A DNA stretch of 64,000 bases from Thermoanaerobaculia bacterium (GTDB lineage Bacteria > Acidobacteriota > Thermoanaerobaculia > Multivoradales > Multivoraceae): the NCBI GenBank assembly GCA_963666565.1, contig OY762911.1, positions 704,001 through 768,000 on the forward strand, read 5' to 3'. The position numbers and the translations under genes were made by a program. The notes beneath the pieces were generated by a model. That model ran no database searches. It saw nothing but the letters and a program-made list of their open reading frames with translations, and was not told the DNA's origin. Positions 20,266 through 38,434 of this stretch are shown in pieces. Positions within the stretch are counted from its first letter, which is position 1, and each line of letters begins with the position of its first letter.

Positions 20266-20511
20266 GGCTTGCCCCGGATCGCCAGGGAGGACACCGGCAG
20301 GAGCCGGCAGGAAGCGAAGAGCGTATCGCAGCGGAGTCTCGGGGCACTGCACCACGACCCAAACGAGGAAGACTGGAGGCCGATTCCAACGAGCCGAAGC
20401 GACGACCGACCGGAAGGACGAGATCGTGAGCATGCGGCCGGCGACCGGAGTGCGGGTCAGAAGACCCGCGCACCCAGTGGCGGCCGGAGTGCGGGTCAGA
20501 AGACCCGCGCA

Positions 20512-20808
20512 TGTATGGTCCGCCCCGCTTGTGCAAGGGCACTTTCCGGAGTTCCGGCGAGAGAGGTGTCGTTGCTTGCATGTATTCGGCCTGTTGTTGG
20601 GCGTCTCGTGGTTTCGAGCTCCCTGGCCCCGATGGAATACGCGCGCGTCGTCTCTTCTGTACACCCAGACGGCCTGTTGAATGGCCCTGCGCGGGTTCAG
20701 GCTCTCGACGCGCCGGTCCGACCTGTTTCGCCATCGCTCCGTTGTGTCCTCGCAACGACTTGGTGGGGCAATCCTCCTTGGTTGATTCGATGTGGATCGA
20801 GCCGCCTG
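20512..20808 (-). ncRNA. Candidate seek/bridge RNA region (3' non-coding region of IS copy 1)
   Basis: About 300-nt non-coding region with target-matching segments at 20688-20696 and 20662-20668. Confidence 0.6.
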
Positions 20809-21867
20809 CTACGCGGCCCGAGAGACCTTCTGCCGAGACCCGGCGAGGCGGTCGTCGCGGTACAGCTCGCCGCGGCGAAGCACCGCCCAGGCGATGCGGC
20901 CCAGCTTGTTGGCCAGTGCCACCGTGGCGACGTTCGGCCCCCGGCGCCGCTTGACGTCGAGCGCCCAGCCCTTCAGCCGCGTTCGCTCGCCCTTCGCCGC
21001 CGTGCGCAGGACCGCCCGCGCACCGTGGATCAGGAGCGAGCGCAGGTAACGGTCGCCGCGCTTGCTGATCCCGCGCAGCACCGTGCGACCCCCGGTCGAG
21101 TCCTGACGCGGCACCAAGCCCATCCAGGCCGACATCTGACGACCGCTGCTGAAAGCCCAGCCGTTGCCCACCGCCGCCACGATCGCCGTCGCCACGATCG
21201 GACCGATGCCCGGAATCGACATCAGACGCTGGCAGTGAGGGTTCTCCTTCGACTCCCGCACCAGCATCGCGGTCAGGTCCTCGACCTCCTTGTGGACCTG
21301 CATCAGAGCCTCGTACTGCATCCACAGCAGCGCGCGAAACTGACCCGGCAGCTCGCGCTCCGCGTCGCTCGCGATGTCGGGCACCGCCCGCATGACCACC
21401 GCCCGGCCCTGACGCAGCACGATCCCGTACTCGCCCAGGAATCCCCGCAACTGGTTCACCAACTGCGTGCGACGGCGAAGCGCCGCCTCCCGGCTCCGAT
21501 GAACCTGCTGAAGAGCACGCTGCTCCTTCGTCTTGTACGGCACGAAACGCATCGTCGGACGGGACACCGCCTCGCAGATCGCCTCCGCGTCGTGGTAGTC
21601 GCTCTTGTTCGACTTCACGTAAGGCCGCACGAACTGAGGACTCATCATCCGCGCGTCGTGACCCAGAGCGCTCAGCTTCTCCACCCAGTAGTGCGCGCCG
21701 CAGCTCGCCTCCATGCCCACCAGGCACGGCTCGAGCTGCACCATCAACTCCATCAGCCCCGACGCCTTCACCTGACGCTGAAACACCACCGCGCCCGACG
21801 AGTCCATCGCGCACACCTGGAACAGGCGCTTGCCCAGATCGATACCGACTCGAGTAACCTTCTTCAT
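20809..21867 (-). CDS. IS110-family DEDD recombinase/transposase
   Basis: GIDLGK, MEASCG, KSDYHDAEAI, SIPGIGP, GLVPRQDSTGG, ISKRGDRYLR, VALANK. Confidence 0.95.
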   Translation of the reverse strand: MKKVTRVGIDLGKRLFQVCAMDSSGAVVFQRQVKASGLMELMVQLEPCLVGMEASCGAHYWVEKLSALGHDARMMSPQFVRPYVKSNKSDYHDAEAICEAVSRPTMRFVPYKTKEQRALQQVHRSREAALRRRTQLVNQLRGFLGEYGIVLRQGRAVVMRAVPDIASDAERELPGQFRALLWMQYEALMQVHKEVEDLTAMLVRESKENPHCQRLMSIPGIGPIVATAIVAAVGNGWAFSSGRQMSAWMGLVPRQDSTGGRTVLRGISKRGDRYLRSLLIHGARAVLRTAAKGERTRLKGWALDVKRRRGPNVATVALANKLGRIAWAVLRRGELYRDDRLAGSRQKVSRAA

Positions 21868-21959
21868 GGTCCGTCTCCTCCCTTGTTGGTTGGGAAAAAC
21901 CCATTCTGGCCCTACAAGAGGCCGTAGAGGGCGGGGCGGACCATCCCATTACCCAGAGG

Positions 21960-22075
21960 CGACCGGAGTGCGGGTCGGAAGACCCGCGCACCCAGTGGCG
22001 GCCGGAGTGCGGGTCGGAAGACCCGCGCACCCAGTGGCGGCCGGAGTGCGGGTCGGAAGACCCGCGCACCCAGTG
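21960..22075. repeat. REP tandem array, 39-bp period
   Basis: GGAGTGCGGGTCGGAAGACCCGCGCACCCAGTGGCGGCC x3; continues the array at 20447-20511 that the IS interrupts. Confidence 0.9.
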
Positions 22076-34609: not shown

Positions 34610-36226
34610 TCAGGCGCCCCAGACGGTCACGGGCCGGCCGCCGAGGGACTCCTCGCGACGGTAGAGCTTCTCCTCCCACGGCTTCGACGCGTCCCGGTCG
34701 AAGATCACCAGGTGGCCCGACTCGGCGCCGCACTTGTCCATGTAGGCCAGGGTCTGCTCCAGGCCCTCGCGGATCGTCGCCTCCAGGCCGCCGCGCAGGA
34801 TCTTGCACTCCACGACGTAGCGGCGCGCCGGCACGCCGGGCTCGGCGGCGCCGGCGAAGCGGCCCGGCGGCCACACGATCAGCAGGTCCGTCCGGCGGCT
34901 GCCCAGCGCGTACTCCCGCTCGATCCGGCCGCCGCCGTTCACGATCCGCTGGAGGAACGTCTGCAGAATCAACTGCGGACCCGCCTCCTTGTACTGGAAC
35001 CGCTCGAGCCAGTGCTCCGAGTGTTCGCGGAAGAAGCGCTGAAACGCCGCCAGCAAGCCCTCCGCGTCCAGGTCGCCGTCCGGCTTCACGTACCACTCCG
35101 TCTCCTGGACGATCTCCGACTCGCGGGCGTACATGAGTTCCCGCGGGATCACTTCGCGGTAGATCGGATTGGCGATCTTCGCCGTGCCGCGCCTCGTCAG
35201 CAGACCCAGGTCCCGAACGTACTCCACGTCGTTCGAGCTGGCCATGTCCGTCCCGTTCGCGGCGCCGCCGCTCAGCACCGGCTCGACCACGCGCCGCACA
35301 CGCTCCTCCCGGAGCTTGTCCGCCAACTGGTGCAGGTGGGTCTGGCGGCTCAGGATCAACTCCTCGCGCGCCTCCATGATCTCTTCCTCGTCGATCGTCC
35401 GGGAGCGGTCCCGGTTCGCCCTGTTTCTGAAACAGGCCTGGTAGGCCAGCGCGTTCACCAGCCACGGCTGGCCCCGGGACTGGTCCCACACTGCGGCGAC
35501 CGCGCCCTCGGTGAACTCCTGACCCGTCTCCTCCGCGTGCTGACCGAGCAGCGTGCGGACGTCCGCCTCGTCGAAGTCGCCGAGCCGCAGCGACTCCGCC
35601 TTGATGTTGAAGGCGCTGCCGCCGGCGATGATCTCGCCCGCCGACTCCGAGTGGATGCGGTAGTCCCGCACGTCGCGGATGCCGCAGAGGATGACGCTCT
35701 GAGGAAACGCGGCCGGCCGTTGATCGTAGCCGGCGCGCAACTGGCGGAGCACGGAGATCAGGGTGTCGCCGACCAGCGCGTCGATCTCGTCGATCATCAA
35801 CACGAGGGGCTTGGCGTCGGCCAGCGACCAGCGACCCAGGGCCAACCGCAGCGCTCCGTGCGGCCCGGCGCGCGTCAGCGCCTCTTCCCACATGCCGTCC
35901 AGGAAGGCGTCGCCATGCGCAACGAGCGCCCGTTCGGAGATCTCGGCCAGCACCGTTCGTATTCCCTCCGCGACATCGCCTCGCGCGGTCTGCGCGGTCT
36001 CGACGTTCGCGTACACGCAGCGGTGTTCGCCGCCCTCGTTCAGCAGGTCGCGCAACGCGAGCAGCGCCGAGGTCTTCCCGGTCTGGCGCGGCGCGTGCAG
36101 CACGAAGTAGCGCTCGTCCCGGATGAGGCGCAGAACCTCGTCGAGGTCGAACCGCTCAAGCGGCGGGATGCTGTAGTGCTTGGCCGGAACCACCGGCCCG
36201 GTGGTGTTGAAGAATCGCTCGGTCAT
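34610..36226 (-). CDS. AAA-like ATPase with C-terminal PD-(D/E)xK-like domain
   Basis: RFFNTTGP, LHAPRQTGKTS, LMIDEIDAL, GQPWLVNAL; REYALGSRRTDLL...VECK. Confidence 0.8.
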   Translation of the reverse strand: MTERFFNTTGPVVPAKHYSIPPLERFDLDEVLRLIRDERYFVLHAPRQTGKTSALLALRDLLNEGGEHRCVYANVETAQTARGDVAEGIRTVLAEISERALVAHGDAFLDGMWEEALTRAGPHGALRLALGRWSLADAKPLVLMIDEIDALVGDTLISVLRQLRAGYDQRPAAFPQSVILCGIRDVRDYRIHSESAGEIIAGGSAFNIKAESLRLGDFDEADVRTLLGQHAEETGQEFTEGAVAAVWDQSRGQPWLVNALAYQACFRNRANRDRSRTIDEEEIMEAREELILSRQTHLHQLADKLREERVRRVVEPVLSGGAANGTDMASSNDVEYVRDLGLLTRRGTAKIANPIYREVIPRELMYARESEIVQETEWYVKPDGDLDAEGLLAAFQRFFREHSEHWLERFQYKEAGPQLILQTFLQRIVNGGGRIEREYALGSRRTDLLIVWPPGRFAGAAEPGVPARRYVVECKILRGGLEATIREGLEQTLAYMDKCGAESGHLVIFDRDASKPWEEKLYRREESLGGRPVTVWGA

Positions 36227-36447
36227 CGGCTTCGGCTCGCCGTCTTGGCGACTCCTCTCCGCATCGTAGCGCGTGCCGCCCGCCGGGTGCGCGGGTCTTC
36301 CGACCCGCTTCCGGGCGCAGCCGCGAAAGCGGCGGAGACCGGAGAGAATGGACGCCGCATGGGTAATGGGATGGTCCGCCCCGCCCTCTACGGCCTCTTG
36401 TAGGGCCAGAATGGGTTTTTCCCAACCAACAAGGGAGGAGACGGACC

Positions 36448-37506
36448 ATGAAGAAGGTTACTCGAGTCGGTATCGATCTGGGCAAGCGCCTGTTCCAGGT
36501 GTGCGCGATGGACTCGTCGGGCGCGGTGGTGTTTCAGCGTCAGGTGAAGGCGTCGGGGCTGATGGAGTTGATGGTGCAGCTCGAGCCGTGCCTGGTGGGC
36601 ATGGAGGCGAGCTGCGGCGCGCACTACTGGGTGGAGAAGCTGAGCGCTCTGGGTCACGACGCGCGGATGATGAGTCCTCAGTTCGTGCGGCCTTACGTGA
36701 AGTCGAACAAGAGCGACTACCACGACGCGGAGGCGATCTGCGAGGCGGTGTCCCGTCCGACGATGCGTTTCGTGCCGTACAAGACGAAGGAGCAGCGTGC
36801 TCTTCAGCAGGTTCATCGGAGCCGGGAGGCGGCGCTTCGCCGTCGCACGCAGTTGGTGAACCAGTTGCGGGGATTCCTGGGCGAGTACGGGATCGTGCTG
36901 CGTCAGGGCCGGGCGGTGGTCATGCGGGCGGTGCCCGACATCGCGAGCGACGCGGAGCGCGAGCTGCCGGGTCAGTTTCGCGCGCTGCTGTGGATGCAGT
37001 ACGAGGCTCTGATGCAGGTCCACAAGGAGGTCGAGGACCTGACCGCGATGCTGGTGCGGGAGTCGAAGGAGAACCCTCACTGCCAGCGTCTGATGTCGAT
37101 TCCGGGCATCGGTCCGATCGTGGCGACGGCGATCGTGGCGGCGGTGGGCAACGGCTGGGCTTTCAGCAGCGGTCGTCAGATGTCGGCCTGGATGGGCTTG
37201 GTGCCGCGTCAGGACTCGACCGGGGGTCGCACGGTGCTGCGCGGGATCAGCAAGCGCGGCGACCGTTACCTGCGCTCGCTCCTGATCCACGGTGCGCGGG
37301 CGGTCCTGCGCACGGCGGCGAAGGGCGAGCGAACGCGGCTGAAGGGCTGGGCGCTCGACGTCAAGCGGCGCCGGGGGCCGAACGTCGCCACGGTGGCACT
37401 GGCCAACAAGCTGGGCCGCATCGCCTGGGCGGTGCTTCGCCGCGGCGAGCTGTACCGCGACGACCGCCTCGCCGGGTCTCGGCAGAAGGTCTCTCGGGCC
37501 GCGTAG
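36448..37506 (+). CDS. IS110-family DEDD recombinase/transposase
   Basis: Protein identical to 20809-21867; GGAGGAG RBS. Confidence 0.95.
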   Translation: MKKVTRVGIDLGKRLFQVCAMDSSGAVVFQRQVKASGLMELMVQLEPCLVGMEASCGAHYWVEKLSALGHDARMMSPQFVRPYVKSNKSDYHDAEAICEAVSRPTMRFVPYKTKEQRALQQVHRSREAALRRRTQLVNQLRGFLGEYGIVLRQGRAVVMRAVPDIASDAERELPGQFRALLWMQYEALMQVHKEVEDLTAMLVRESKENPHCQRLMSIPGIGPIVATAIVAAVGNGWAFSSGRQMSAWMGLVPRQDSTGGRTVLRGISKRGDRYLRSLLIHGARAVLRTAAKGERTRLKGWALDVKRRRGPNVATVALANKLGRIAWAVLRRGELYRDDRLAGSRQKVSRAA

Positions 37507-37803
37507 CAGGCGGCTCGATCCACATCGAATCAACCAAGGAGGATTGCCCCACCAAGTCGTTGCGAGGACACAACGGAGCGATGGCGAAACAGGTCGGACC
37601 GGCGCGTCGAGAGCCTGAACCCGCGCAGGGCCATTCAACAGGCCGTCTGGGTGTACAGAAGAGACGACGCGCGCGTATTCCATCGGGGCCAGGGAGCTCG
37701 AAACCACGAGACGCCCAACAACAGGCCGAATACATGCAAGCAACGACACCTCTCTCGCCGGAACTCCGGAAAGTGCCCTTGCACAAGCGGGGCGGACCAT
37801 ACA
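37507..37803 (+). ncRNA. Candidate seek/bridge RNA region (3' non-coding region of IS copy 2)
   Basis: ACCCGCGCA (37619-37627) and CTGGGTG (37647-37653) match the two strands of the REP target. Confidence 0.6.
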
Positions 37804-38098
37804 TGCGCGGGTCTTCTGACCCGCTTCCGGGCGCAGCCGCGAAAGCGGCGGAGACCGGAGAGAATGGACGCCGCATGGGTGCGCGGGTCTTCCGACCCGC
37901 ATCGGTGCGCGGGTTTTCTGACCCGCTTTCCGCCGCAGGCGGCGGCCAGTATCGTCGCCGGCCTCCGGCCGGCGTCCATTCCCCCCGGCCTCCGCCGCTT
38001 CGCGGCGGCGCCCGGATGCGGGTCGGAAGACCCGCGCACCCAGCGGGCAACCAGCGGATAGGCTCGGCGGCGCCACTTCGACACCCAGGGAGACCGCC

Positions 38099-38434
38099 AT
38101 GACCGACACCGCCGCCGCCGTCGACGACATCTTCGCCCGGATGCCCGGCCGCCTGGACCCGCAGGCCGCCGCGGGCCTCGACGTCGTGATCCAGTTCGAC
38201 CTCTCGGGCGAGGGCGGCGGCGTCCGGCACTGCGCGATCAAGGACGGCGCCTGCACCGTCGGCGAGGGCGCCCACGACGCGCCGACGATGACCCTGTCGA
38301 TGGAGGCCGCCGACTACGTCGCGCTCATTTCCGGCGAGCTGGACGGCACCGTCGCCTTCATGAGCGGGAAGCTGCGGATCGACGGCGACATGGGGCTGGC
38401 GATGCGGATGCAGAGCCTGTTTCGCACCGACTGA
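38099..38434 (+). CDS. SCP2 sterol/lipid-binding domain protein
   Basis: IQFDLSGEGGG, LISGELDG..AFMSGKLRIDGDMGLA. Confidence 0.88.
   Translation: MTDTAAAVDDIFARMPGRLDPQAAAGLDVVIQFDLSGEGGGVRHCAIKDGACTVGEGAHDAPTMTLSMEAADYVALISGELDGTVAFMSGKLRIDGDMGLAMRMQSLFRTD

Follow-up and report, generated by a model that had tools for sequence, protein, structure and literature searches.

How can a mobile element enter one and the same position of a short repeat that its host genome carries hundreds of times? This question is raised by a stretch of 64,000 nucleotides from a Thermoanaerobaculia bacterium (assembly GCA_963666565.1, contig OY762911.1, positions 704,001 to 768,000), hereafter the window, in which two copies of a 1440-bp insertion sequence (IS) interrupt a repetitive extragenic palindromic (REP) sequence. 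The element very probably belongs to the IS1111 branch of the IS110 family, is active or was so recently, and carries a putative RNA that reads the host REP. An initial annotation of the window had proposed an RNA-guided recombinase whose guide can be read directly from the DNA. Guide layout, IS1111 order and guide-target covariation support this proposal, in which the RNA itself is a prediction from sequence.

Copies and insertion site of the element

The genome searched is a single contig of 4,786,144 bp with 70% G+C. It holds exactly five copies of the 1440-bp element, all 100% identical; blastn finds no partial copies, and tblastn of the whole genome finds no transposase paralogues beyond the five. 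Copy A lies at 20512..21951 on the minus strand, with its transposase gene at 20809-21867 and its 5' and 3' target guides at 20688-20696 and 20662-20669, all on the same strand. Copy B, which is identical to it, occupies 36364..37804 on the plus strand. Each junction has a single T common to flank and element, at 36364 and at 37804 in copy B, so the ends of this copy can be written as 36364-37803 or 36365-37804. The two copies interrupt the REP at the same junction, as the initial annotation had stated. They are 14.4 kb apart and inverted, and form a substrate for inversion of the intervening segment by homologous or element-mediated recombination.

After orientation, the flanks read [C/A]TGGG-T / element / T-GCGCGGGTC, with identical site and orientation in all five copies. 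Insertion involves no target duplication, only the one shared base, and the same target position is used in 5/5 copies and in 36/36 copies of related elements. Four of the five copies interrupt the REP hairpin GCGCGGGTC-TTCT-GACCCGC, while the fifth (genome position 347393) lies in GCTGGGTGCGCGGGTC, which is followed by sequence without the 3' arm of the hairpin and has the 15-nt target. Because this copy lacks the arm, the feature common to the five sites is the 15-nt sequence and not the palindrome.

Exact matches to the 15-mer target number 525 across the 4.79-Mb genome, and 66 of them fall in the window, which makes up 1.3% of the genome and is therefore very REP-dense; the repeat had been credited with dozens of copies per 64 kb, and this count agrees. 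TGCGCGGGT, the complement of the 9-nt 5' guide, has 928 occurrences in the genome. Counted by kind, the sites comprise 526 of CTGGGTGCGCGGGT and 51 of CTGGGTGCGCCGGC. That each of the five copies occupies a CTGGGTGCGCGGGT site is uninformative alone, because this kind accounts for 91% of sites. The window also contains tandem REP units, of ~33 nt at 21952-22075 and of ~85 nt around 36270-37930 (also 37805-37930).

Target-binding loop of the predicted RNA

The target-binding domain of the predicted bridge/seek RNA lies downstream of the transposase gene, at 37602..37672 (plus strand, as all features of copy B given below), and is closed by the helix 37602-37609 / 37665-37672. Within it, the 5' target guide ACCCGCGCA (37619..37627) is the reverse complement of the core T plus GCGCGGGT, and would pair with the top strand of the target. 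The capping hairpin GGCC-8 nt-GGCC (37629..37644) follows, with a G on either side, and after it comes the 3' target guide TCTGGGTG (37646..37653), which is identical to the left half of the target plus the core T and a G, and would pair with the bottom strand. Both segments had been singled out in the initial annotation, the first as the reverse complement of the right half of the target and the second as the left half of the copy A target, and both assignments are correct. The match of TCTGGGTG to the left half at copy A is 7+1 nt, and in the other four copies it is 5-6 nt including the core T, plus the G (TGGGT in copy B). Since the closing helix and the capping hairpin enclose them, the guides face each other across one stem-closed domain of ~70-85 nt.

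The top-strand match (37619-27) comes before the bottom-strand match (37646-53), and the two overlap in the target by 2 nt (TG). The published IS1111 model, as described in PMC11187229, has a top-strand match 5' of the bottom-strand match, an overlap in the target and a short RNA of 82-96 nt; guide order and overlap in the present element agree with the IS1111 seekRNAs given there for ISEc11, ISPa11 and ISKpn4. Chance is no serious explanation for the guide matches. In 20000 dinucleotide shuffles of the non-coding end, a core-anchored complement of at least 9 nt arises 119 times, and both matches in the right arrangement, with a left-half match of at least 6 nt sought 10-40 nt downstream, arise in none (0/20000). 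The closing helix of the target domain is 7-12 bp long and is found at the same place in 13/14 elements, in which it is formed by unrelated sequences. A Rfam scan of 36000-38200 with E up to 10 returns eight weak matches far under the gathering scores, none of them to a bridge-RNA family.

Natural retargeting in related elements

A scan of one genome per species yields 50 loci, of which 35 hold full-length elements with 83-85% DNA identity to the window element, in ten sequence variants. The full-length relatives come from metagenome-assembled genomes (MAGs) of Thermoanaerobaculia / Candidatus Multivorans. Neither the element ends nor the 3' guide TCTGGGTG nor the left half CTGGGT differs among them, but the right half of the target does.

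The guide changes with the target. Both the guide and the right flank are present in 36 relative copies, which are not independent events, the independent units being about ten element variants in about seven genomes. The guide ACCCGCGCA is found at GCGCGGGT in 13/13 copies, and the guide GTCGGCGCA at a GCGCCGRC repeat in 22/22 copies, as GCGCCGGC in 15 and as GCGCCGAC in 7. This covariation, read from natural sequences, is the strongest evidence for RNA guiding, and it bears out for the relatives the idea that guide bases and target choice go together. In a 1453-column alignment of the eleven variants, nine columns separate the two target classes, and two of the nine are within the 9-nt guide. 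The guide changes, A to G at 37619 and C to G at 37622, exactly complement the T-to-C and G-to-C changes of the target. A fourth guide, GCCGGCGCA, matches GCGCCGGC perfectly, in a truncated copy (L047) that has lost its right flank.

In the genome that hosts the GTCGGCGCA element, CTGGGTGCGCSGRY occurs at 420 sites, and the first 100 listed comprise, by hand count, 61 GGC, 38 GAC, 1 GAT and 0 GGGT. The 15 GGC and 7 GAC sites that are occupied mirror this background of 61 and 38 per 100 listed, as expected if the guide U pairs with A or G.

More distant elements follow the same rule in part. Both guides, as runs of 7-8 nt around a hairpin, are recovered in the plasmid elements of Photobacterium (L051) and Massilia (L052), whose proteins are ~49% identical to that of the window element. 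A wobble-tolerant cross-matrix of guides against flanks was tried as a specificity control and dropped, as it was too noisy in GC-rich sequence.

Several other loci show how such elements decay or accumulate. In the Vicinamibacteraceae MAG that carries the truncated copy (L047:2381-2560), the degenerate element ends inside the DNA for the 3' guide (…GTCTGG) and gives way to the 3' arm of a REP of the GCGCCGGC type, as though guide region and flanking repeat had been fused by a deletion. Another locus (L045:1488-1921) has an internal deletion, so that element positions 72-485 and the last 28 nt are left without the RNA region; it adjoins a third REP variant, GCGCGGACC-TTCT-GGTCCGC, and could be a non-autonomous remnant. 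Two relative copies lie within ~1 kb of each other (L015:331-1773 and 2770-2946) in a genome with 22 copies. The genome G002, which has a single element copy (L006) with a guide one base off its site, carries both REP families, GCGCCGGC and GCGCGGGT; a perfect site for that guide, GCGGCGGC, is uncommon in this genome, with one among the first 100 listed.

A probable donor loop

A second loop (37676-37736) directly follows the first and has the same layout and the same register to the capping helix. Its 5' strand TATTCCATCG (37676..37685) may pair with the left-end bases +2 to +9. Its capping helices (37687..37727) consist of GGCC at 37687-90 / 37724-27 and of an inner helix, and in its 3' strand AATACATG (37729..37736) the right-end terminal hexamer ATACAT is followed by G. 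The 3' strand equals the element's own right-end hexamer, followed by G, in 8/8 diverse elements. In the seven others, which have 37-50% protein identity, the hexamers are ATACAC, ATGTAC, ATATAT, ATGTAT (twice), ATATAC and ATCTAT. The capping helices covary: pairs form in 87% of cells, compared with 21-50% after sliding of the partner, six of the nine pairs are changed on both sides, and the covariation score is reached by 0/500 shuffles. According to Durrant et al., many IS1111 elements place their donor-binding bases in a multi-loop, and the extra inner helix fits such a placement.

The 5' strand fits less well. Its pairing with the left-end bases +2 to +9 (ATGGGATG) needs two G:U pairs, a conserved C stands opposite the left-end +1 A in the window element, its close relatives, L052, L053 and L054, and one more mismatch is present in four relatives (L040 type). 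The pairing is perfect in L029 (left end ATGGAAT) and in the Massilia plasmid element L052. Because of the 5' strand, the assignment of this segment as the donor loop is rated likely rather than shown.

The position after the core base has a pattern of its own. The right flank begins with G in 8/8 elements (window position 37805; L041, L043, L044 and L051-L054), whose targets are otherwise unrelated, and the 3' strand of the donor loop also has G after the core base in 8/8, although the circle junction has A there. The C at the +1-facing position of the 5' strand is present in 13/14 rows of the alignment A2; the left end itself can be checked for the window element, its close relatives, L052, L053 and L054, and L051 has T at that position. 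The core base of L053 is C on both sides, and not T. It is conceivable, if rather unlikely, that crossover in this IS1111 branch is read as a two-base step, Y-G on the target side and Y-A on the donor side. An equally tentative corollary is that both strands of the donor loop would be written for the G:C pair at target +1 and not for the A:T pair of the donor. If true, handshake-like pairing would become available only once strands had been exchanged, or on the integrated right junction, and it could favour one direction of the reaction or link excision to the flank.

Transposase, element ends and proposed mechanism

The transposase/recombinase gene (36448..37506) encodes 352 residues and is the sole plausible gene of the element. 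Its product matches PF01548 (DEDD_Tnp_IS110; E 4.1e-20, residues 7-147), PF02371 (Transposase_20; E 7.6e-24, residues 212-290) and the NCBIfam model NF033542, "IS110 family RNA-guided transposase", with 341 bits against a cutoff of 140. D10, E53, D90 and D93 are the candidate catalytic residues of the DEDD set. GLVPRQDSTG, at residues 250-259, fits the GL-P----S(t)G motif with the putative catalytic Ser/Thr, which is given for IS1111 transposases in PMC11187229, and aligns with ...PRRYESG... of ISCro4. The solved structures are of distant relatives, ISCro4 (9t56) and IS621 (8wt6), which match with E ~1e-09 (8wt6 E 2e-09) in the C-terminal domain only, and the closest plasmid-borne transposases have 49-50% identity.

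The non-coding ends measure 83 nt on the left and 297 nt on the right, downstream of the gene. The left subterminal inverted repeat ATGGTCCGCCCCGC (36371..36384) is 6 nt inside the left end and is conserved in relatives, and the right one, GCGGGGCGGACCAT (37787..37800), is 4 nt inside the right end. Both are 14 bp long, within the range of 7-17 bp described for the IS1111 group in PMC11208160. Protein families, repeats and the long downstream end agree with the IS1111-type assignment and the downstream RNA region of the initial annotation.

No sigma-70-like promoter is found in the linear element. TTGCAC (37779..37784) is the -35 half of a predicted junction promoter that would be completed only in the circle, where joining CAT (37802-37804) to AAT (36365-36367) gives TTGCAC-17 nt-CATAAT across the junction. 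This is a sequence match only, and it corresponds to the junction-promoter arrangement described for the family in PMC11187229.

In the proposed mechanism, the DEDD/Tnp recombinase would excise the element as a circle, and the joined ends would create the promoter that drives transcription of the transposase gene and the 297-nt non-coding end. The RNA made in this way may be bound by the protein and may direct recombination. It would fold into a bridge/seek RNA with two loops alike, each with a 5' guide, a G, a GGCC cap helix, a G and a 3' guide. Loop 1 would read the target, with ACCCGCGCA pairing with the top strand of T-GCGCGGGT and UCUGGGUG with the bottom strand of (TC)TGGG-T-G; these pairings would place the crossover at the T of CTGGGT/GCGCGGGTC, where the host REP hairpin has its left edge. 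Loop 2 would read the joined ends of the element, with AUACAU equal to the right end and UAUUCCAU pairing with the left end.

Counterevidence and alternative explanations

Several observations weigh against an active element with a REP-reading RNA. The stability of the single-sequence fold is unremarkable (z = -1.5; 16/200 shuffles fold as well), and the fold pairs part of both guides with each other (ACCCG with UGGGU). The ACCCG/UGGGU pairing is not a conserved helix, since it is broken in retargeted relatives (column pair 121-149 is G-G in 2/11). RNAalifold on 11 close relatives gives change on both sides in only 1/76 pairs; these sequences are 91% identical, too similar to test most helices, hence the near absence of covariation. 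Among the relatives, L006 (one copy) with the guide GCCGCCGCA occupies GCGCCGGC with one C:C mismatch. In the Mesorhizobium element (L053) an exact run is found for the 3' guide only, the 5' guide having one mismatch by eye, and the Aeromonas element (L054) has a 5' guide that fits by eye with one G:U, while its 3' guide is not found. The public runs listed with the element include no RNA datasets. Only 5 of ~530 possible sites are occupied, and activity is therefore low or recent.

This low occupancy is also what a dead relic would show, with five copies carried from one REP cluster to another by recombination or duplication and an RNA that has lost its function. There are just five copies despite 525 free targets, and no clean empty site or circle junction is seen in the examined contigs of four public runs, in which the element and the shared REP flanks assemble into one unitig and the joints seen are REP-to-REP. 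The five copies are nevertheless 100% identical, with an intact reading frame, exact junctions and differing outer flanks. A 98.6% identical variant (X5: 20 differing letters in 1454) is present in the run of another study, and a relative has reached 22 copies in one genome. A relic is accordingly very improbable.

Slightly less probable still is a recombinase that finds the REP hairpin through protein-DNA or structure-specific contacts, with the complementarity as a by-product such as a captured REP fragment. The REP is indeed a hairpin, and its palindromic nature makes the 5' guide resemble the REP 3' arm also. All four occupied hairpins (37805-37824, 20492-20511, genome 803520 and 2464003) have the loop TTCT, which 30% of the targetable hairpins have (140/467); the naive p is ~0.008, and the comparison is post hoc. 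The loop is NTCT in 10/13 occupied GGGT-type hairpins of relatives, counted by hand. The site without the hairpin 3' arm speaks against recognition of the hairpin, as do the guide changes that follow target changes and the relatives with non-REP targets that share the same layout. The guides are moreover not a contiguous piece of REP, since one matches the top and the other the bottom strand, with an RNA hairpin between them. Pairing of a 5' extension of the guide with the REP loop was considered as a source of the TTCT bias, but no such pairing is seen by eye, and the bias is not accounted for by the guides.

Just as improbable is an RNA that regulates REP-bearing host transcripts by antisense pairing, whether in addition to guiding recombination or in its place. 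It has 9 nt of perfect complementarity to the abundant TGCGCGGGT, but its split two-strand design and its donor loop are accounted for by recombination and not by antisense pairing.

Comparison with known systems

The element is a new IS, probably unnamed, of a known RNA-guided kind. RNA-guided target choice in IS110/IS1111 elements is already published (PMC11187229, PMC11208160, PMC11208158), as is REP targeting (IS621, ISPa11), and knowledge of the mechanism is unchanged by the present element. It offers a readable example of an IS1111-type bridge/seek RNA from an uncultured acidobacterial lineage (Thermoanaerobaculia, judged from relatives), a lineage for which a literature search combined with IS110 found no paper. 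It also contains a built-in natural experiment, as near-identical scaffolds aim at two REP families via two or three guide bases, and one guide U serves both A and G variants of the repeat. Its value lies in guidance for annotation and in comparative data on the less-studied IS1111 donor loop, and the compact pair of scaffolds would be useful for reprogramming tests (target variants CTGGGTGCGCGGGTC, CTGGGTGCGCCGGC and CTGGGTGCGCCGAC).

ISPa11, a member of the IS1111 family from Pseudomonas aeruginosa, targets a REP, and its 96-nt seekRNA co-purifies with the transposase, as described in PMC11187229. According to that description, it shares with the window element the REP target, the subterminal inverted repeats, the downstream non-coding region and the top-strand match 5' of the bottom-strand match; it differs in host phylum and REP sequence, the two elements being compared by description and not by sequence. 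IS621, of the IS110 group in E. coli, is likewise reported as a REP-targeting, RNA-guided DEDD recombinase with target and donor loops that address both strands and with a conserved core T. Unlike the window element, IS621 encodes its RNA upstream, in the left end; its bottom-strand guide comes first, which is the reverse order (PMC11208158), and its subterminal repeats are given as only 2-3 bp (PMC11208160).

ISPpu9 and ISPpu10, of the IS110 family in Pseudomonas putida, are also described as multi-copy elements inserted in REP sequences. ISPpu10 is among the six bridge-RNA examples in Durrant et al., whereas for ISPpu9 a separate downstream small RNA gene is described, the likeness again being one of description and not of sequence. 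The retargeting seen among the acidobacterial elements is closest to that of ISEc11 and ISXne4, which PMC11187229 presents as close relatives with a conserved RNA scaffold and guide bases rewritten for other targets. Here, in contrast, only the right half of the target and the 5' guide are changed, by 2-3 bases, and the elements switch between two REP families found in related host genomes.

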